Source: Stegostoma tigrinum (taxonomy: Eukaryota). From it: 64,000 bases of DNA. The notes beneath the pieces are model-generated. The model made no database searches, was not told where the DNA came from, and saw only the letters and a program-made list of their open reading frames with translations. A program made the translations under genes and the position numbers. Of this stretch, positions 10,685 to 59,329 are shown piece after piece. Where the stretch lies: positions 9,362,001 through 9,426,000 of the forward strand of contig NC_081397.1 in the NCBI RefSeq assembly GCF_030684315.1. Reading direction: 5' to 3'. Position 1 is the first letter of the stretch. Each line of letters starts with the position of its first letter.

Positions 10685-10736
10685 GCGAGCTCCGAGCCCG
10701 TTTTCGCTTATTCTGTGTCTGAAAGTGACCGTTACG

Positions 10737-11117
10737 ATGGCAGATGAGAAGAAAGCGCAGGCAACTTCCAAGAAGGGCGCCAAGAAAATCATCAAGAAGG
10801 CGCCAGCGAAAGGCGGTAAGAAGAGGAGAAAGTCCAGGAAAGAAAGTTACGCCATCTATATCTACAAAGTGATGAAGCAGGTTCACCCCGACACCGGCAT
10901 CTCCTCCAAGGCCATGAGCATCATGAACTCGTTTGTCAGCGATATTTTCGAGCGTATCGCGGGGGAGGCTTCCCGCCTGGCCCATTACAACAAGCGCAGC
11001 ACCATCAGCTCCCGGGAGATCCAGACCGCGGTGCGGCTGCTGCTGCCCGGGGAGCTGGCCAAGCACGCCGTGTCGGAGGGTACAAAGGCGGTGACCAAGT
11101 ACACCAGCTCCAAGTGA
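10737..11117 (+). CDS. H2B: Histone H2B, intact, 126 aa
   Basis: Canonical [26 protein letters not shown]...AVTKYTSSK. The start is the ATG at 10737; the track ORF starts at an upstream GTG. Confidence 0.98.
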
Positions 11118-11158
11118 GACCCCACATTATGCAGAGAAAAACACATCCAAAACCCAAC

Positions 11159-11199
11159 GGCTCTTTTCAGAGCCACCCACAACTTCGCTGAAACAGCTG
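11159..11199 (+). terminator. Histone 3' stem-loop and downstream element (H2B)
   Basis: GGCTCTTTTCAGAGCC (11159-11174) followed by ACCCA, then TGAAACAGCTG. Confidence 0.95.
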
Positions 11200-11572
11200 A
11201 ACCAACTTTTTGCAAATGATTTTCGGTATGTATTAGTAATGTCAGTCGGCTTTTTAAAAATAATGTAATTGTTTTAGAACTTGATGTGTGGTCCCTCATC
11301 TGCCCTTTATTTTAGGTTGCAGCCATACCCTGTCTCGTTTCCCTGTATCTGCAAAGAGCATAATTATCTCCAATGAATCATGTATCAACAACTTCCATTT
11401 TTTTTTCCCAAGTTCCTCTTTCACACTTGATGACCCCGGGAAACAAAATTAACATCGAATCCCTTTTTACAATCTACTTGCTGTTGTTAATTTTACAATG
11501 AACCGAGATAAAGCCAGAGCAGCTGCCGAATTGCGATAGCAAGTGTGAAATATACAAGGCTATCCTCGGGTC

Positions 11573-11613
11573 TCCGCTCTCTTTCGAGGGTTTGGGTGGC
11601 TCTGAAAAGAGCC
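11573..11613 (-). terminator. Histone 3' stem-loop and downstream element (H4)
   Basis: Minus strand GGCTCTTTTCAGAGCC (11598-11613) followed by ACCCA, then purine-rich GAAAGAGAG. Confidence 0.95.
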
Positions 11614-11643
11614 TTTGGGTTCGCTGGAAAAGGGACGATTTGC

Positions 11644-11964
<321 letters not shown>

Positions 11965-12010
11965 TCACTCCAATCGCTGCCGAATAAGACCCGAGGTGCC
12001 TCACCTTCCT

Positions 12011-12040
12011 TTTTTATATAGCCCGCCCCGACCTGACTGA
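12011..12040 (-). promoter_or_regulatory. Histone H4 core promoter
   Basis: Minus strand TCAGTCAGGTCGGGGCGGGCTATATAAAAA contains a TATA box, a GC box and a motif resembling the H4 site II (GGTCCG) element. Confidence 0.75.
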
Positions 12041-12218
12041 GAAAGAGCTGACAGAGAGTGAGAGGCGGCCCGGGCAGGCAACTGAGTGACAGGCAGAGAA
12101 ATGTCCAGCTCCGCCTCCAGCTAACTCCCGCCCCCAACTGGATCTGGAACTAAACCTTTTCTCCACAAGGGCAGTGAACACAAGGCCCGGCAGAAAACCT
12201 GCAGAATCAAGTTTCACG

Positions 12219-12352
12219 ATGAAAGATAGTAAAAAGGCGGTGAGCAAGAACACCAGCTCCAAGTGAGACACCACATTCTGCTGAGATAACACATCCAAAA
12301 CCCAAAGGCTCTTCTAAGAGCCACCCACAACTTCATTGAAAGAAGCTGAGCC
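12219..12352 (+). pseudogene. H2B: H2B remnant: C-terminal codons, 3' UTR, stem-loop and downstream element only
   Basis: AAGGCGGTGAGCAAGAACACCAGCTCCAAGTGA and the following UTR align with 11085-11202. Stem-loop GGCTCTTCTAAGAGCC at 12307-12322. Confidence 0.9.
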
Positions 12353-12378
12353 ATTGTCTCTATTACTGGTTTGCTTGA

Positions 12379-12678
<300 letters not shown>

Positions 12679-12707
12679 AGAGACCGTTCTTTAACCTGAC
12701 AACCAAA

Positions 12708-12750
12708 GGCTCTTTTAAGAGCCACCCACAACATCAGTGAAAGAAACTGG
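12708..12750 (+). terminator. Histone 3' stem-loop of the H2A pseudogene
   Basis: GGCTCTTTTAAGAGCC (12708-12723) followed by ACCCA, then TGAAAGAAACTG. Confidence 0.9.
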
Positions 12751-14815: not shown

Positions 14816-15122
14816 ACACAGGTTTAAATCCAGAGAAATTACATCAAATATTAAATCTCTAAATTATATCTGAAATGGTTTGGCCCAAACACATCCTGTG
14901 AACTATGGAATTTTCTTTCATGAATTCTCCGAAATTTGAGAGTATAAACATTTTCCGCTTCTAATACCTTCACAGCTCAAACCAAACCCTCCTCAGAAGT
15001 TCTACTCAGGTAACTTTTTGTTCTTTTGTTCCTAGTGACTTATTCTGAGCTCTATATAGTAGACAGGCTAAACTTGATTCTGATCTTAGTCCTATCTCCA
15101 AACTAAACAAAATACCTTCTAA

Positions 15123-15307
15123 GACAACAAAATGTGAGGCTGGATGAACACAGCAGGCCAAGCAGCATCCCAGGAGCACAAAAGCTGACGTTTCGGGCCC
15201 GAAACGTCAGCTTTTGTGCTCCTGGGATGCTGTTTGGCCTGCTGTGTTCATCCAGCCTCACATTTTGTTGTCTTGCATTCTCCAGCATCTGCAGTTCCCA
15301 TTATCCC
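15123..15307 (+). mobile_element. Foldback (palindromic) mini-element derived from the Penelope terminal repeat, 15-bp TSD
   Basis: Palindrome 15121-15274 centred on GGG|CCC (77-bp arms, one mismatch), followed by a tail. CAAAATACCTTCTAA at 15108-15122 and 15308-15322. Confidence 0.9.
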
Positions 15308-15659
15308 CAAAATACCTTCTAACCTTGGGTTTATAAAGAAAAATCAATCCTTGATTACTCTGAACTGAAAACAAGATGATGTCCTTTGATGTTTGCTCAT
15401 CCATTGCAAATCAACAAGAGTCTAAACAATTTCCCATTCACTCCACATGGGGCTCCACAGCCACTTGCATTCTGAGCAGTGCTGGAGGAAGGTCACTGTT
15501 TCACAAAGATTCACACTTTTTCTTTCAAAGAAAACTTTCAGAAAATGAACCAAATTCAGTGTCACTATTATAAAAGCCAACTTCCAAACTGGAATTTATA
15601 TAAATTATACATCCTTCATCACAGCAGTTACTCAGGATCTCACTGACATTTCAGCAGTT

Positions 15660-15913: not shown

Positions 15914-16384
15914 CTAGGAGCTGGTGAATAGCCTCTCCCCAGTATGAATTCGTTGATGAGTCTGGAGGCTGGAAGCCAAAGTGAATCCCTTGCCGCACGT
16001 ACAGCAGATGAACGGCCTCTCCCCAGTGTGAACTCGCTGGTGTATCAGCAGGTTGGAGGAATTAGTGAATCCCTGCCCACACTCAGAGCAGGAGAATGGT
16101 CTCTCCCCAGTGTGAACTCGCTGGTGTCTCTGCAGGTGGGATTTCTGACTGAATCCCTTGCCACATTCAGAGCAGGAGAATGGTTTCTCCCCAGTGTGAC
16201 TGCGCCGATGAATTTCCAGTTCAGTCGAGGATCTGAATCCATTCCCACAGTCCCCACATTTCCACAGTTTCTCCTTGTGACTCCGTTTATGTTTCGAGAG
16301 GTCAGATGATCGGCTGAATGCTCGTGCACACACGTCACACATGTACAGTTTCTCACCGCTGTCAACAGTGTATTCTCCTTCCAT
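15914..16384 (-). CDS. C2H2 zinc-finger protein, 5 intact fingers, no KRAB/BTB/SCAN domain seen, 156 aa
   Basis: Five CxxC-x12-HxxxH fingers, mostly with TGE(K/R)PF linkers. ATG in AACATGG context at 16384. Splice acceptor TTCCACAG upstream, so the exon begins at 16483. Confidence 0.85.
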
Positions 16385-16776
16385 GTTCAAAACCCAACGA
16401 GATTCAGGTTACACCAAATTGGGACACTCTGAAATCCTGATCGGTTGCAGTTTCCCGACTGTAAATTCTCTCCTTCTAATATCCTGTGGAATTGATTTAG
16501 AACAGAATTAATGGAAGTGAGAGTCTCCCCATAAAAATACAAAGTCATGCATCTGTCCCAGTATCGCATTTGGCTCCATGTCAAATGTATGAACACAACG
16601 GCTAACATTTGAACTATCGGGCCCTCCCGCCTGTTCCATCATTCAATACGACGATGACCGATAAGATCATGTTTTGAATTTCTAGTTACACCCAATAACT
16701 TTTGATACCCTCGCTGAACAAGTATCTACAAGTATCTACCCACCTCTGCCTTAAAAATGTTCAATGATCCAGTCTC

Positions 16777-16912
16777 AGAGATACTGGGAACTGCAGATGC
16801 TGGACAATCCGAGATAACCAAGTGTGGAGCTGGATGAAGGGTCAAGGCCCGAAACATCAGCTTTTGTGCTCCTAAGATGCTGCTTGGCCTGCTGTGTTCA
16901 TCCAGCTCCACA
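16777..16912. mobile_element. Inverted Penelope-terminal mini-element, 15-bp TSD
   Basis: CAATGATCCAGTCTC at 16762-16776 and 16913-16927. Left half is the reverse-complement tail; right half is the hammerhead-to-CCAGCTCCACA segment. Confidence 0.88.
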
Positions 16913-17167
16913 CAATGATCCAGTCTCGACTGTCTTTTGAGGCAGAGGGTTCCAAAGTCACACTAATCTTGTATAAAGAACTCCTCTCATGATAAAGCCA
17001 TCTTCCCCCATTCTGGACTTAGCCTGAGGAGAAAATATGTCCACATTCACCTTGTCAAAACCCATTCAGGTTATTAAACATGAGGCAAGTCACACCTCAC
17101 TCTTCTGAACAAGTGAGCATTCCCCAGGCTGTCCAAAATATCCTCAGAAGACAACCCACTCTTCAGG

Positions 17168-17355
17168 GATAACAAGGTGTAGAGCTCAATGGACACAGCA
17201 TGCTAAGCAGCATCAGAGGAGCAGGAAGGCTGACATTTCAGTCCTCGACCCTTCATCAGCCTTCCAGCTCCTCTCATGCTGCTTGGCCTGCTGTGTTCAT
17301 CCAGCTCTGCACCTTGTTATCTCAGATTCTCCAGCATCTGCAGTTCCTACTATCT
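17168..17355. mobile_element. Inverted Penelope-terminal mini-element (older)
   Basis: Inverted arms of the same terminal repeat, with a minus-strand hammerhead-like core at 17231-17259. Imperfect flanking repeat CCACTC(A)TTCAGG. Confidence 0.8.
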
Positions 17356-19229
17356 CCACTCATTCAGGTATCAGTCTATTGAATCTCCACCGCATTTACA
17401 TCCTTCCTTCAATAATGAGACCAGAACGGCACACAGTCATGGAGGTGCGGTTTCACTTATTCCCTGTACAACTGAATTATCAAATCCTTACTTTGCTATT
17501 CGATTCCACTCATGATAAACAAGAACATTCCATGAGCCTTCATCTTCACTTGTTAATTATATCCCAATCTTTTGTGTATTTTACACCAGATCCCCCTGAT
17601 ATCTAAACCCCAAAAGATTCTGCACCTGTCTTCTTTTCTCATTTTTCCCCTCAAGCAAACAATTTCACATTTTGTTATATCATAGATCACCTGAAATATT
17701 CATTCAAAAAGGCTGCAAACTGATGTCGGGAAATTAAGTCTTCACAGCCACCTTTCCTGATAGCTTTGTAGCAACACAAAGTGTACCTACCATGACTTCA
17801 TTTCCCTCGTCCAAGTCATTGATATAAACTGCAAAAGGTTTAGGTTCAGCAGAGCCCTGTGGCTCCCCACTCATCACATTCTGACAATCTGAAACACACC
17901 CATTTACGGATATTCTCGGTTTTCTATCATCCAGCCAATCCAGTATCCAGGCCGGTATGCACCACTAAACCAGTAGCTCCCACTCAAAACAGTCACCTTT
18001 TCCATGGTACCTTGTGAAATGCCTTCAGGAAAGCCAAGAACAAGAGATCATCAGGCTCCCTTTATCCACAGCACAAGTCACTCCTCAAAGAATTCCACTA
18101 AATTGGAGAAACACAAAGAAGTAATTGTTCCCTTAGATGAAGGGTGAATAACACTGGGCATCATTTTGCAGTGAAAGGCAAGAATTTTACAGGGGAATGG
18201 AGGAAAACATTTTTCACCTAAAGGGTGGTGCAAGTCTGGAATGCACTACCTGGGACGGCCGTTGATGCGGCAAGCCTCACAACTCAACCTCCACTGCTCC
18301 AGGGAAGAAAAGCCCCATCCTTTCCAGCCCCATCCCACAGCCCAAACACTCCAATACCGGCAATATCCCTGTGAATCATCTCTGAACGCTTTCAGGATTC
18401 ACAACTTCTTTCCCATAGCAGGGAGACCTGAACAGAATACAGTATTCTAACTATGTCCTGTACAGTCGCAATATGACATCCCAACTCCAATAACTCAATG
18501 CAGTGACAAATGAAGGCGAGCGTACCAAATGCCTTCTTCACCACCCTGTCTACCTGCAACTCCGCCTTCAAGGGACTTTGCACCTGCAACCCTAATCCCC
18601 TTGTCCAGCTACACTCCCATGGGCCCTACCATTAACTGTCTAAATCCTGCCCTGATTTTCCTTATTGAAATGCAACACCGCTCATTTGTCTGAACTCCAT
18701 CTGCCACTCCTCAGCCCACTGATCAAGATCCCAAACTACTCAGAGAAGATCACCTTCCTCACTGTCCATACACCACCAATGTTGGTGTCATCTACAAACC
18801 TATGAGCTATACCATCACATGCAAATCATTTGGATAATTACTAAACGCAGTGGACCCAGGACTGATTCTTATGGCACACCACCTGGTCACAGGCTTCCAG
18901 TTCAAAAGACAACCCTCCACCACCACACTGTTTCATACCCTGAATCCATATTTGATTCCAACTGGCTAGTGCTTCCTGTATTCCATGTGATCTAACCTTG
19001 CTAACCAATCTACCATGCGGAACCTTGTCAAGTGTTTTGCTGAAGTCCATATACACAATGTCTACTGCCCGACCTTCAATCTTCTTTGCCACATTTTCAA
19101 AAAAAATAACACAACTGACAGACTGGGACACGATTTCCAATGCACAAAGCCATGCTGGCTCTCCCTAATCAGTCTTTATCTTTCTAAGCACATTTAAATC
19201 CTTTTGTTCACTTATTTCTTCAGTTTTTT

Positions 19230-42199: not shown

Positions 42200-44110
42200 T
42201 GAGGATGGCAAGCTGTGGGATCCTTGCATGGCAGGAGAGGTTTGTGAGTCGAAAAGGAAAAGGAAGTATATGTAAGATTTAGTAAGTTGGAATCACACAG
42301 GGCCTGTGAGGAATATGAGGTTAGCAGGAAAGAACTGAAGCAGTAAATTTGGAGAGCAATGCGGGGCCATGAAATGCCCTTTGCAAATAGAGTTAAGGAG
42401 AATCCAAAGGCATTTTATACATACATTAAAATAGGATCACTCAAGGGAAAAGGAGGGAACTTGTGTTTGGAGGCAGCAGATATGGGCAGGATCCTAAATG
42501 AGTACTTTGTGTCAGTATTCCCCACAGAGAAGGACTTGGATAATAGTGTGGTTCGTGTAGGGCATGCTAATATGCTGGGGCATTTTGAGGTCAAGAATGA
42601 AGTGGTTCTAGATCTCTTGAAGAGTATAAAGGTGGAGAAGTCTCCAAAGCCCATTGCGATCTACCACAGGTTATTGAGAGAAGCACAAGAGGAGATTGAT
42701 GGGGCCTTGACCAAGATTATTTTATCCTCTGTAGCCAATGGAGAGGTCCCTGCCGACTGGCGAGTAGATAATGTCGTCCATCTGTTCAAGAAGGGGAACA
42801 GGGATAATCCAGGAAATTTTAGACTGATGAATCTCACAACAATAGTTGGGAAACTATTGGAGAGAATTCTTAGGGATAGGATTTATGCCCTTTTGGAAAA
42901 GCATAACCTAATTAGGGACAGTCAGAATGGTATTGTGTGGGGCAGGTCATGTCTTCCTAACTTAATTGACAAGGCGATGAGGGTGCGTTTGAAGACAGAG
43001 CAGTGAATTTCAGTTTGGCTTTCGATAAGCCCCTCATGTTTGGCCCATCGAGAAGAATAAGATGCATGGGATCAACGGTGACTTCCATTTGGATCCAGAA
43101 TTGGCTTGCCCATCGCCGACAGAGGATTGTGGTGGATCAGTGTTTCTCAGGGATTCATGTTGGGATCTCTGCTGTTTCTAATTTTTAAAAATGACTTTGA
43201 TGAAAACTAGATATGTGGGTTAGTGCTTTTACAGGCAGCAGAAAGGTCAGAGGAGTTGTGGACAGTGTGGGGTAAACTGGGAGATGAACCAGTTGCAGAT
43301 TTGTTGCATTTTGGGAGATCATTTCTTCAAGGAAAATGTACAGTTAATGGCAAGTCCCTTAATTGCATTGATTTCCAGAGGTAGCTTGGGGTCCCAGCCC
43401 ATAGCTTCCTGAAAGTGGGCCCATGTGTGGATAGGGTGTGCTCGACTTTATTGGTCAGGCATCGAGTGCAAGTGTCAGGAAGTGATGTTGTAGCATCCTT
43501 ATAAGGCTTCGGTTAGGCCGCACTTCAGAGTATTTTCTTCAGTTCTGGCCATTACACGGCAGGAAGGATGCAGAAATTTTGCAGAGGGTGCAGAAGGTGC
43601 TGTCTGGATTAGAGGGTAGAAGAAGAGGCTGGACAGAATAGGTTCAGAGATAGTAGGAACTGCAGATGCTGGAGAATCTGAGATAACAGGTGTAGAGCTG
43701 GATGAACACAGCAGGCCAAGCAGCATCGGAGGAGCAGGAAGCCTGATGTTTCGGGCCTAGACCCTTACTCTGAAGAAGACAGCCTTCCTGCTCCTCGGAT
43801 GTTGCTTGGCCTGCTGTGTTCATCCAGCTCTACACCTTGTTATCTCAATGGGCCGAATAGGGTTGTTTCCTCTGGAGCGGCAGAGGCTGATGGCAGACCT
43901 CACAGAGCTTTATAAAATGATGAGAGGCATAGATACAGTAGGTTGACAGTCAGAAGGGTATTTAAGGGGCTTTTAGATAAACACACAAATATGCAAGGGA
44001 TATAGACTATGTACAGGCAGAAGGGATTAGTTCAATTTGGCATCAAGTTTGGCACAGCATTGTGGGCCAAAGAGCCTGTTCCTTTGCTGTGCTGTTCTCT
44101 GTTGTATCGA
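42200..44110 (+). mobile_element. Degenerate CR1 ORF2
   Basis: NRVKENPKAFY, ILNEYFVSVF, DNPGNFR, GRSCLPNL, and a CR1 tail. Confidence 0.9.
43645..43846. mobile_element. Inverted Penelope-terminal mini-element nested in CR1
   Basis: Reverse tail up to TTTCGGGCCTAGACCCTT, then the forward arm to TTGTTATCTC. Degenerate flanking GAATAGG(G)TT. Confidence 0.82.
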
Positions 44111-48990: not shown

Positions 48991-49914
48991 TTTAGTTCTC
49001 CTCAGCCACTGATAACATCAAAGGTTTCTGTCTGTGTCTGTACTCAATATCTACTCCATATATGGTCGTTGTAACGACCTAACAGCATGATCTGTTTGTA
49101 TACCTTGACTGTAACTTTAAAAATGCCCTAACTTAATGTGAATTCAGCGCAGTTGTTGCATGTAGATTTGTGATGAAGATTCAGTCTATCCCTCTTCAAA
49201 CATTGTAAATGACAATGGGCTTTCAAAGATGAACTTCACTGTGACCAGGATAGTTTACATTGAGAATAGAGGAAAAAAAGACACATTTTTATTTTGTTGG
49301 TGATGTTTGACCCTTTGATTGCATATCTCTGGAAATTAAACTCAATGCAAGTCTCAGCTCTGTGACTGTGGGGGAAAAAATGCTCTCTGCTCTGATACTG
49401 GGAACAAACCTGCTGTTTGGTCAGAGGAACTGGTCACACCTGGTGTTATACCGAGGAAATATTACATTTTCTGGCTAATCAAATATGTGCCTGGAGAAAG
49501 ACAGAAGAGGTATCTCCCATAAACCAACATTGACCAGTTTTGAAAATATCAAACTGATCGATGCAATATTGAGTTAATATGAAAGATGATTCCTTGTTTT
49601 AAAGCCAACAGTTTGAACAGAGCAGGGTCTGGTTCCATAATTACGCTGAGCTCCTCCTAGTCCCATTCGTTTTATGAAATTCAAAAAAAAATCACTGAGG
49701 TACAAGTCCTAATCAAAACATTTACAGCCTCATGTTTGGAATGCTGACATAGTTCAATATCCATCTGCCATTTTACTACTGTTGAAGGGAAGGACAACGC
49801 GCACTTTTTAAAATGTTTTACTTGAGACTTTAAACCCAGTAACTGCGATATATCCCTTACAAGATAATCGTATTTGCATATAATGACATCCTCACATATC
49901 AGCCCACCAACTTT

Positions 49915-50210: not shown

Positions 50211-51756
50211 TTTTGAAAAAAAAGGTTCTCTGTTTGATGTTATCAGATCATTTGTCTCTTGCTCGAGGTGTGGAGAGATCAGTTAGCCAAGTTACATATT
50301 AGTATTCATATGTTTCATAATTAGAACTCCTGTTTCAAGCTAGCCTTCAGGATTCCACCAGCAATTTTTGGTTTTCTTTCTGATTTACAGCATCCTCAGT
50401 TCTTATGGTTTTTATTTTGTATCCAACATGGTCAGAGTTTACAAGAAATGAAAAAGTTGCTAATGCTGCTTGTCAGGGCCAGTGTGGAAGCTGTCATTTA
50501 TATGCACATATTTGTCAGATATCTTCACTGGGCATACTTTATCGATGAGGCTTGACTGAGCTGTTGCTGATCTTCAGTCCCTTCCTGAGACAAACCACAG
50601 CTGGGGTCTAATCTCTCACACTGTAATTTCATTGCCATTGCATATATTCAGAGAACAGGTCTTTGTGCTGACCAGTCAATAAATTGCACATTTCTAAGCA
50701 GAATTGCATAATTAGGGAAGGGAAGTACTTGAGAATATTTCTGGGAGGGTAAAGAAACAGGAAATGTTAATTTTGCAACAGAGAAACTTGAGAACTGGAA
50801 TGTGCCTTTCAGCCCCTGATACTGCCATCCTATTGAATATGATCATGCCTGATCAAGCATTTCATTGCATTTTACATGCTCCATCCTCATAACCCAGTTT
50901 ACGATAGGCAGTCAACAGAGATAGAGCAACTGTAGCTCCCTGTGGGGACAGAATTCTGAAGGATTACAATTCACTGAGCAAAATAAAACAAACCCTTATC
51001 TTGGACCACAGTTGAATTATTTTAAAATCTTACCTGGTTCCAGTCTACCCTCAACCGGCAAACATTAAAACTCTATCTACCATGTCCTCCACTTTAAGGA
51101 TTGTGTGGCAGTATTTTTAATAATAACATTGCTCACCCATTGAATCCCTGACTAATGCCAGCCCAGTTTGTCCACTCTCTCTTCATGGGATGTTGCCACC
51201 GTCCCAGGAGCAAGCCTGGTGAATCTTTGTGGCCCTCTCTGTCTGGAAATTACATCTTTCCTGAGATAAGGAGACAAACTGCACACAGTACTGCAGCTGC
51301 AACATAACCAAAGTCCAATACACTTGAAATAAGACAACGTCTAACATTCCATTAACTTTCCTATAAACATATTCAGCCATTAAGCAGGACATCAGAGACC
51401 AATGCAAGAAAGGTGCAATGGAACCATGAGTTCTATTTATATATCAGTTGGAAAAAGCAATGTGGTGCAGTATTTCCATGAGTATGTGCATTTTTGTTTT
51501 GTATTCATTTGTGAAATGTGGATTTTGTTGGCTCATGAGCATTTATTGCCCATCCTTAGCTGCCCTTGAGAAAGCGGTAGTGAACTGCGTTCATCAATCG
51601 TGTGTGTCTGTGTCTGAGAAAGAGACAGAGAGAAACAGTGAGATGGTTCTTCAAGGGATTGGTCTGAGAAAGCATCTCACTCTTCTTTTTCTCTCTCACA
51701 CACACACATTGACCTACACATTTCAAAAACACAGTTCACTACGACCTTCTCAAGTT

Positions 51757-51786
51757 AACATTTCGGGTCCGGTGACCCTTCCTCAG
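51757..51786 (-). ncRNA. Minimal hammerhead-ribozyme core (element remnant)
   Basis: Minus strand CTGAGGA-A-GGGTC-ACCG-GACCC-GAAA-TGTT, with a perfect 5-bp stem II. Stem I is incomplete in this copy. Confidence 0.55.
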
Positions 51787-57282: not shown

Positions 57283-58790
57283 ATATGATCATGGGAACTG
57301 CGGATGCTGGAGAATCCAAGATAACAAAGTGGGGATGTACACCTCTTCCTCCATTACATTGATGACTGTATCATCGCTGCCTCTTGCTCCCCAGAGGAGC
57401 TCAAACAGTTCATCCACTTCCCCAACACCTTCCACCCCAACCTCAAGCTCACCTGGGACATCTCCAACACATCCCTCACCTTCCTGGACCTCTCAGTTTC
57501 CATCTCAGGTAACCAGCTAGAAACTGATGTCCACTTCAAGCCCACTGACTCCCACAGCTACCTAGAATGCACCTCCTCCGACCTACCACCCTGCAAAAAT
57601 TCCATCCCCATTCCCATTTCCTCCGCCTCCGCCGCATCTGCTCCCAGGATGAGGCATTCCACTCCCGCACATCCCAGATGTCCACATTCTTCAAGGACCG
57701 CAACATTCCCCCCGCAGTGGTCGAGAACACCCTAGACTGCATCTCCAGCATTTCCCGCGACACATCCCTCACACCCTGCCCCCGCCACAACCGCCCCCAG
57801 AGGAACCCCTCATTCTCACATACCACCCCACCGACCTCCGGATACAACGTATCATCCTCCGACACTTCCGCCATCTACAATCCAACCCCACCACGCAAGC
57901 AATTTTTCCATCCCCACCCTTGTCTGGCTGCTGGAGAGACCACCCTCTCCGCGACTCCCTTGTCTGCTCCACACTCCCCTCCAACCCCACCACACCTGGC
58001 ACCTTCCCCTGCAACCACAGGAAGTGCTACACTAGCCCCCACACCTCCTCTCTCACCCCTATCCTAGGCCCCAAGATGGCCTTCCATATCAAGCAGATGT
58101 TCACCTGCACATCTGCCAATGTGGTGTATTGTATCCATTGCACCCGGTGTGGCTTCCTCTACATTGGGGAAACCAAGTGGAGGCTTGGGGATCGCTTTGC
58201 AGAACACCTCCGCTCGGTTTGCAACAAACAACTGCACCTCCCAGTCGCGAACCATTTCAACTCCCCCTCACATTCCTCAGACGACATGTCTATCATGGGC
58301 CTCCTGCAGTGCCACAATAATGCCACCAGAAGGTTACAAGAACAGCAACTCATATTCCGCTTGGGAACCCTGCAGCCTAATGGTATCAATGTGGACTTCA
58401 CCAGCTTCAAAATCTCCCCCTCCCCCACTGCATCCCAAAACCAGTCCAACCTGTCTCTGCTTCCCTAACCTGTTCTTCCTCTCACCCATCCCATCCTCCC
58501 ACCTCAAGCCGCACCTCCATTTCCTACCTACCACCTCATCTTGCCTCTTTGACCTGTCCATCTTCCCTGGACTGAGCTATCCCCTCCCTACCTCCTCACC
58601 TATACACTCCTCTCTACCTATCTTGTCTTCTCTCCATCTTCGGTCCACCTCCCCCTCTCTCCCTATTTATTCCAGTTCCCTCGCCCCCATCCCCCTCTCT
58701 GATGAAGGGTCTAGGCCCGAAACGTCAGCTTTTGTGCTCCTGAGATGCTGCTGGGCCTGCTGTGTTCATCCAGCTCCACACTTTGTAATC
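57283..58790 (+). mobile_element. Neptune-type Penelope-like element with inverted tail at its 5' end, 10-bp TSD
   Basis: YIDD catalytic RT motif (TACATTGATGAC), VVYCIHCTRCGFLYIGETK GIY-YIG. TTCAATGGTT at 57273-57282 and 58791-58800. 57286-57334 is the reverse complement of the tail. Confidence 0.95.
58699..58726 (+). ncRNA. Minimal hammerhead ribozyme core in the Penelope terminal repeat
   Basis: CTGATGA-A-GGGT(CTAG)GCCC-GAAA-CGTC has the conserved boxes, stem II, palindromic ACGT and a GUC triplet. Stem I is only ~2 bp, so activity is uncertain. Confidence 0.65.
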
Positions 58791-59329
58791 TTCAATGGTT
58801 CCAAGTTTGGTCATGACACAAAATTGGGCAGGATTGTGGGGAGGGCACAAAGGAGGTGAGTTCGACACATTGAGTGGGGCAAACACACGGCAGATGTGAA
58901 AGTTATACACCTCTGCTTTGGAGAAACAGAAAGCGAATATAATTGAAATGGTCATGTATTGGGAAGTGTGGACATACAAAGAGATCCAAGTGTCAATAAA
59001 AGTAGACATTCAGGTGTGACCAGTTATTAGGAAGGTAAATAGGACATGGGCGTTCATTGCAAGAGGATTGAAGTTTGGAAGTCAGGATGTCTTGCTGCAG
59101 ATATACAGGGTCTCCCTGAGACAACAGGCTCGAGGGGCCAAATGGCTGTTTTGAACTCAATCTCATTAAAAAATGACACAATGATTACTAAAGAATTCAT
59201 TCACAGGTTGCAGGCATCACTGGTTGGGCTCATGATTAATTGACTTCACTTTTTGTTCTATATTTTTATAGAATTCAACATTGACTCTCAGCCCATGACA
59301 GGAATTAAATCCAGGACCCTAGAAAAACT

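Follow-up and report, generated by a model that had tools for sequence, protein, structure and literature searches.

The stretch analyzed here, which we call the window, comprises 64 000 nt of Stegostoma tigrinum DNA (RefSeq assembly GCF_030684315.1, contig NC_081397.1, positions 9 362 001 to 9 426 000 of the forward strand). It holds a histone gene cluster at 10725–12750, with H2B and H4 frames, further fragments and four histone 3′ stem-loops, and a C2H2 zinc-finger frame at 15914–16390 on the minus strand, with degenerate fingers continuing to ~15640. The zinc-finger frame ends ~600 bases before a palindromic insertion at 15108–15322, and the palindrome could lie within its 3′ UTR. The components of this insertion, and of related copies elsewhere in the window, are collected in Table 1. 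Two weak inverted repeats at 49694–49840 and 51565–51754 are unrelated to the terminus, in its subfamilies A and B, from which these copies are built.

Table 1. The palindromic insertion and related copies in the window. Element positions are numbered such that +1 is the C of CTGATGA.
Feature	Position	Strand	Remark
TSD, left copy, 15 nt	15108..15122	+	exact direct repeat; last 2 nt also belong to the arm
Tail-less arm, element +18 to +92, ending at start site 1	15123..15197	-	inverted-repeat match
GGCC joint, element +16 to +19, 3′ strand of predicted hammerhead stem II, common to both arms	15196..15199	.	
Tailed arm, paired part, element +18 to +94	15198..15274	+	
Half hammerhead core (3′): GAAA, palindromic ACGT, GTC triplet	15201..15208	+	mirrored at 15187-15194, minus strand
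33-nt tail, start site 1 to start site 2 (+95 to +127)	15275..15307	+	
TSD, right copy	15308..15322	+	exact 15-nt direct repeat
Sister head-to-head insertion, 15-nt TSD	16762..16927	.	tailed arm confined to +67 to +125, tail-less arm spanning +3 to +82; 6-nt common joint
Sister insertion, subfamily B	17168..17356	.	tail-less arm reaches +1, tailed arm begins at +30
Sister insertion, subfamily B	43646..43847	.	arms begin at -1 (tailed) and +30 (tail-less); joint with an additional re-copied piece
Single-arm copy extending ~1.4 kb upstream into the parent (3′ part of the element)	57300..58792	+	whole hammerhead core at 58699

Each arm of the palindrome is 77 nt in length (15121–15197 and 15198–15274). 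The arms are 99% complementary, with 15162/15233 as the sole mismatch, and no spacer separates them. An inverted-repeat search thus returned the arms as they had been described in the original prediction, and the ~33-nt tail on one arm and the perfect 15-bp TSD that it had reported are also present, the latter as exact repeats. When the palindrome is folded as DNA the z score is –24.9, a value equalled by none of 200 shuffles. The left arm overlaps the end of the TSD by 2 nt, leaving 75 nt from the TSD to the axis. That axis lies at a natural GGCC word within the 3′ strand of the predicted stem II. It had been placed at GGG|CCC, exactly at stem II; the assignment to stem II stands, but the axis falls within the 3′ strand of that stem and at GGCC, and the left GGG is the mirror of CCC, by sequence indistinguishable from the 5′ strand of stem II. 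The CTGATGA box has indeed been lost, the copy beginning at +16. Neither the CUGANGA box nor stem I of an active hammerhead is present, and since the 5′ half of the core is missing the ribozyme of this copy is predicted to be inactive; by the core numbering of PMC4209133 the predicted cut falls after 15208. With no ORF and without half the ribozyme, the copy was probably dead on arrival. As an object it is an ordinary dead stub of a known class.

The left flank of the insertion has 17 full-length paralogs on the same contig. The insert is present in 10 of these, whereas the other 7 lack it and have one copy of the 15-mer. In addition, a contig from another organism fuses 15107 to 15308, corresponding to the empty site. 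The empty paralogs and the cross-species empty site together show that this is a true insertion with a true TSD. The same insert is found at 11 places on the contig, with flanks that are 97–100% alike, and the insertion evidently happened once and was later duplicated along with its neighbourhood. The block concerned, at 5.4–15.3 Mb of the contig, has been duplicated at least 17 times, and its filled and empty copies date the insertion within that expansion. The 11 duplicated copies share one centre, yet carry their own point changes. It had been proposed that reads should support the palindrome. They do so in part: the right junction is present with 0 differences in the contigs of two studies, and raw bisulfite reads of a third study contain head-to-head joints of the family around the axis, but among the contigs and bisulfite reads searched no record bridging the axis of this particular copy was identified. 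This last point is what an artefact of assembly would lead us to expect. We give that explanation next to no probability, given the TSD with its empty paralogous and cross-species sites, the private point changes of the 11 duplicates and the family joints in the raw reads of another study.

On comparison with longer copies, the palindrome is identified as a short insertion of the pLTR end of a GIY-YIG (EN+) Penelope-like (PLE) retrotransposon. Extended upstream, long copies run into an ORF with RT and GIY-YIG matches; extended downstream, they reach the start of an ORF, and in L170, L171, L174 and L177 the terminus passes into the N-terminal part of the ORF, as it does in a pLTR. One partial copy has a 456-aa open frame upstream of the same terminus that contains YIDD and a GIY-YIG match (E = 2e-4, just below the Pfam cut-off), and an RVT_1 match (E = 0.007) is found in a different copy of the element. 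There are 83 relatives, and those that are 46–54% identical have both RT and GIY-YIG. The family also displays a tail of 30–40 nt at one end, an inverted 5′-truncated copy and a TSD, in the manner of EN+ PLEs. The Penelope origin, hammerhead terminus and retrotransposition of the original prediction are thus borne out by a parent carrying RT and GIY-YIG matches. Translations of the parent contain a CX4CxxC linker. A CX2-5CxxC linker between RT and EN marks Neptune/Nematis (PMC8557442), and by its linker the element would be placed provisionally with these. A search for poly(A) signals on L002 gave nothing above chance.

The motif of a minimal type I hammerhead can be recognized in the pLTR, with core letters that are invariant in 14 copies of three subfamilies. 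Stem cells are paired in 79.6%, including a change from C-G to U-A in stem I, a level that is not above shuffles (55/500). Rfam returned no hammerhead match at E up to 1, and folding of the intact monomer as RNA gave a non-hammerhead hairpin (z from –1.2 to +0.7), with no structural support. Rfam matches suggesting a microRNA lay below the gathering score and were rejected as a by-product of the hairpin. Subfamily B has U-G in stem I where A has C-G. The third subfamily is older; its stem II loop is longer, its triplet is GTT and its stem I is compensated. It is found in the window at 51786 (minus strand) and in L092, L158, L162, L072 and others.

The element is abundant. In the 3.2-Gb genome there are 88 164 exact matches to one 32-mer taken from the intact hammerhead. 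A random sample of 65 arbitrary 10-kb stretches (650 kb, with four targeted stretches left out) contained 100 elements, of which 40 are head-to-head, scaling to ~490 000 copies in the genome and ~197 000 head-to-head (interval 140 000–268 000). The figure of 40% is a floor, because some single-arm calls show a short inverted arm by eye. The ‘very productive process’ that had been suspected is therefore real, at ~200 000 head-to-head stubs by extrapolation, and the related copies noted at 16777, 17168 and 43645 are indeed differently joined, each with its own joint. Short re-copied pieces of the first bases of the RNA are present at the joints of L080, L082, L149, L134 and L151 and at 43760–43780 of the window, and resemble repeated template jumps at the 5′ end.

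Collection of these pairs reveals a simple rule. The 3′ ends of the arms fall into two groups, at ~+90–96 and +125–129, the shorter end lying at ~+85–100 in the random pairs. A long arm (end at +110 or later) is combined with a short one in 37 of the 40 random pairs, the remaining 3 having two short arms; two-tailed pairs number 0/40, where 8.6 are expected (p 8e-9). All 107 pairs (counted after removal of 8 duplicate loci, and without the 11 duplicates of the present insertion or 4 loci fetched a second time) comprise 102 with one tail, none with two and 5 that are tail-less, and 67 further pairs comprise 64, 1 and 2, respectively. L214 is the only pair with both arms tailed, and it has an internal rearrangement. 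The TSD is 13–15 nt in 43 of the 55 subfamily-A pairs that have an exact TSD of at least 11 nt. The TSD and arm overlap by means of 1.9 and 2.8 nt, where the chance level by hand estimate is ~0.7 nt; this partly conflicts with the ‘not homologous’ start of PMC11167929.

At their inner ends the arms are far more variable. The tail-less arm reaches >5 nt further upstream in 14 of the 37 random tailed pairs, the tailed arm does so in 16, and in 7 they lie within 5 nt of one another. The tail-less arm reaches further in the window copies at 16777 and 17168. Extremes of inequality are provided by L156, the window copy at 16777 and L089, where the tailed arm is the tail alone; by its sequence L089 has the classic shape of twin priming. 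Yet the arms of a pair have much in common. Rare variants common to both arms number 15, compared with 0.76 in shuffled pairs (maximum 4 in 1000), while 86 are found in one arm only. Read-through into upstream sequence occurs in both arms of 6 pairs, one arm of 1 and neither of 30, i.e. agreement in 36/37 (p 3e-6). The inner ends of paired arms are correlated (rho 0.43, p 0.007). Even with the tail-less arm the longer of the two, diagnostic sites agree in 56/63 cases, for an expectation of 41.7; the sites of subfamily A are concordant at 0.92–0.97 compared with 0.61–0.77 expected, and those of the older subfamily B are at chance. Both arms of the palindrome at 15108–15322 hold a rare G at +45. 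Variants common to the arms may also stem from later gene conversion, and the concordance within subfamilies from the age of insertion.

We consider that the palindrome is a single EN+ PLE insertion made by twin priming at two fixed sites on one RNA and joined via GGCC, and we put the probability of this at about 0.72. The observations that lead to it are the TSD and empty sites, the RT/GIY-YIG parent, the two fixed arm ends, the one tail per pair, the independent inner ends and the common variants. For the steps from double cut to ligation we infer that the protein would cut both target strands ~14 nt apart, whereupon one 3′ end would prime at ~+127 and the other at ~+93, aided by 2–3 nt of pairing. 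Both cDNAs would be extended toward the 5′ end of the RNA, the second displacing the first. In this copy both would halt at ~+16 and their GGCC ends anneal, so that fill-in and ligation would generate the spacerless palindrome. The arms of this particular copy are nested and equal at the inner end, so that it does not itself discriminate between mechanisms, and the case rests on the sisters. In these the arms vary at the inner end and share variants, a combination that speaks for twin priming from two fixed starts rather than for fold-back.

Fold-back at the ribozyme hairpin was the cause favoured in the original prediction, and here it did not hold up, since 14/37 pairs have unique sequence in both arms. 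In this scheme one cDNA, or an antisense RNA (PMC3846280), would copy itself at the hairpin, and resolution by the endonuclease would set the tail (PMC8557442). It would account for the identity of the arms at once, and 16/37 pairs are nested as it expects. But snap-back of a tailed cDNA makes the other arm a subset of the first, so that the tail-less arms reaching >5 nt further in 14/37 are no copy of it. A GGCC joint would require a loop of 0–2 nt, as judged from the sequence, whereas two cDNA ends could pair over all four bases and be extended to exactly the sequence observed. Retention of the whole stem II hairpin, in 18 of 50 among the matches listed of 753 joints inside stem II, is something that snap-back could give; however, with respect to the tail the retained hairpin is found in either orientation (L014 and L106 versus L096 and L103), and spacerless palindromes are also formed at a second GGCC outside the ribozyme. 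Taken together we regard fold-back as unlikely.

Alternatively, each target strand might prime on an RNA molecule of its own, with a different RNA for each protomer. The anole PLE protein is a predicted dimer, minimal hammerheads are predicted to pair as dimers, and the 86 rare variants restricted to one arm might point the same way, although such variants are expected from mutation after insertion. The 15 common rare variants, the matched read-through and the near-absolute one-tail rule are simpler with one RNA, and priming on two seems to us distinctly improbable.

How special is the GGCC joint? The joints of the random sample are scattered from –785 to +95, and that of the copy at 15108–15322 belongs to a minor class, found in 0/40 random pairs. 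Inside stem II the largest class is that keeping the whole hairpin (13 exact and 5 variants of 50 among the matches listed of 753 joints); of the same 50, 3 have the GGCC joint (by eye) and 4 are centred on CTAG. Spacerless palindromes centred on an outer GGCC, 28 nt outside the ribozyme, account for 7 exact and 6 one-change cases of 50 among the matches listed of 152. GGCC is one of several self-complementary words serving as spacerless joints. The exact 30-nt GGCC joint is found at 64 places, and the independent best matches contain it in 16/19, and it or a near joint in 17/19, a set that is biased by the query. Such recurrence might suggest a replicating non-autonomous family, MITE- or SINE-like, with a fixed palindromic master. 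But segmental duplication of this site accounts for ~10 of the 64, and each of the independent copies has its own TSD and variable outer ends, with several subfamily haplotypes represented and the arms matching within a copy; no arm asymmetry is common to different GGCC loci, as inheritance from a master would require. Since the same joint is found on different haplotypes with different ends and TSDs, its recurrence is not replication. TSDs of 13–17 nt and unequal ends are also unlike a cut-and-paste element, and a replicating family is a very improbable explanation. The original prediction had taken identical junctions at many loci to signify such a family; tabulation of inversion points and TSDs gave a third outcome, in which the identical joints exist but the replicating family does not, and its idea of a structure built anew at each insertion is sustained.

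The inner ends have a further use. If twin priming is the normal insertion route of this PLE it would explain why an inverted pLTR and a one-sided tail are seen throughout the group. The inner ends would also map the 5′ ends of the RNA, –4 being a capped start and +29 the site left by hammerhead cleavage, so that the minimal PLE hammerhead would cleave in the germ line. We give this wider proposal an even chance. Inner starts cluster at –5 to +2, and subfamily A starts at –4 are preceded by G in 12/13, as a cap might leave, although the cases are partly non-independent. This G is expected of capped sense RNA and so counts against fold-back too, with the proviso that several of the G's adjoin the other arm and are not independent. 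The cut predicted after +28 by the numbering of PMC4209133 leaves a start of AGCU. Palindromes centred on AGCT make up 40 of 50 among the matches listed of 986 joints in this zone, compared with 2/50 for the adjacent ACGT. The AGCT class, at ~790, is the commonest spacerless joint, begins at the predicted cut and is far commoner than the GGCC class; the copy at 15108–15322 is not of this cut-site class. Twenty AGCT palindromes that were fetched (L205–L224) have several haplotypes, variable ends and mostly clear TSDs. With palindromes excluded, 100 matches listed have starts at +29 in 22, +28 in 8, +30 in 5 and +31 in 4 (by eye; p 3e-4 versus uniform), and 5 of the 22 use one recurring common joint. 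An upstream family common to the +29 starts was considered as their cause; the first 30 of these 100 include 7 starting at +29, which between them have four different contexts, and four of the 7 do so via one recurring 3-nt joint. Stalling at the base of the RNA hairpin (+31) was considered as the origin of the AGCT class and set aside, the starts at +29 and +31 numbering 22 versus 4. In subfamily B the +29 peak is weak or negative, with 7 clean starts (at most 13 with variants) among 100 listed and +27 as common, and AGCT and ACGT number 19 versus ~14 of 50 among the matches listed (A versus B, p 1e-4). After the fact, the U-G in stem I of B is a possible reason for the weak signal. Low hammerhead activity has been reported (PMC4209133); the ~790 palindromes and the peak of other copies at the predicted cut suggest that cleaved RNA is sometimes the template.

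These data also bear on a later origin of the spacerless centre of this copy, in which the insert was at first a longer head-to-head one and then lost the stretch from one GGCC word to the other. Longer inserts of this kind are abundant, and since any self-complementary word recurs in direct orientation on the far side of a palindrome, slippage would yield exactly this joint. Yet all 11 duplicated copies have the same centre, and later deletion predicts neither that in subfamily A the weakest word, AGCT, should outnumber the neighbouring ACGT by 20 to 1 nor that non-palindromic copies should peak at the same base. We assign it a small probability.

Twin priming at two fixed sites can be set beside several known systems. 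The shape itself is not new. EN+ PLE insertions of Pen2a_Av in Adineta vaga have an inverted pLTR, one-sided tail and TSD (PMC3846280), and a general scheme of such insertions has been presented (PMC8557442); to speak of an under-described system, as the original prediction did, was therefore too strong. Like those described in these papers, the present insertions have head-to-head pLTRs, a tail of 30–40 nt on one arm, a TSD round the unit and palindromes at the joint. They differ in being mostly ORF-less units of 130–250 nt present in ~200 000 copies, and in TSDs of 13–15 nt rather than 8–10. In these papers the shape is attributed to self-priming on an antisense template, or left open. PMC8557442 names the formation of tandem and inverted structures as unsolved, and the one-tail rule and common variants now provide a concrete and testable model.

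The closest biochemical comparison is with PAc, a Poseidon element of Anolis, for which extension of both strands, two internal start sites bounding the tail and a predicted dimer are described in vitro (PMC11167929). The two arm-end groups match, by analogy, the two internal RT start sites and both-strand extension of this anole element, and in both elements the start sites bound the tail and lie close behind the hammerhead. The comparison is with an element of the Poseidon clade, whereas the present element has a Neptune/Nematis-type linker, its CX4CxxC being absent in Poseidon; moreover, the ORF of PAc is described as starting in stem II, while here it starts behind the tail. Inverted insertions are unaddressed in the text of PMC11167929, where ‘inverted’ is used only of a blocking dT, and no RNA ends were found in that study at the ribozyme cut. 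Twin priming is known from LINE-1 (PMC2837659), where, as here, both strands prime one RNA, inverted pieces lie in one TSD and short common letters are found at the joint. In LINE-1, as described there, only a variant form of insertion involves it; the internal site is free, and the pieces are different parts of the RNA. In the present PLE both sites are fixed, the pieces usually overlap so that a palindrome results, and at least 40% of insertions are involved. Twin priming as the cause of inverted PLE insertions was not reported in the open-access literature searched.

MITEs are short and non-coding, with inverted repeats and a TSD. The palindrome has all these features in common with them, but has unequal ends, a long and variable TSD, a variable centre and a retroelement parent; the equal terminal inverted repeats, fixed short TSD and single master of a MITE are lacking. 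In annotation, stubs of this kind will be mistaken for MITEs or microRNA hairpins, and ~200 000 of them could supply hairpin RNA and cruciform DNA on a large scale.

A further likeness is to the metazoan non-LTR retrozymes (PMC7229834; bioRxiv 10.64898/2026.07.22.740005), which are also non-coding, PLE-derived and furnished with a type I hammerhead. The copy at 15108–15322 differs from them in being head-to-head rather than tandem and in having no whole ribozyme. Tandem arrays of the unit do exist in the genome. Retrozyme-like, head-to-tail arrays of the terminus, with periods of 362, 329, 293, 336 and 166 bp, are found on contig C1, for example at 49657916–49658671, 104860947–104862294, 110519778–110520688, 135852212–135853251 and 140329147–140330008. 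In the array L242 the unit restarts at the predicted hammerhead cut site.
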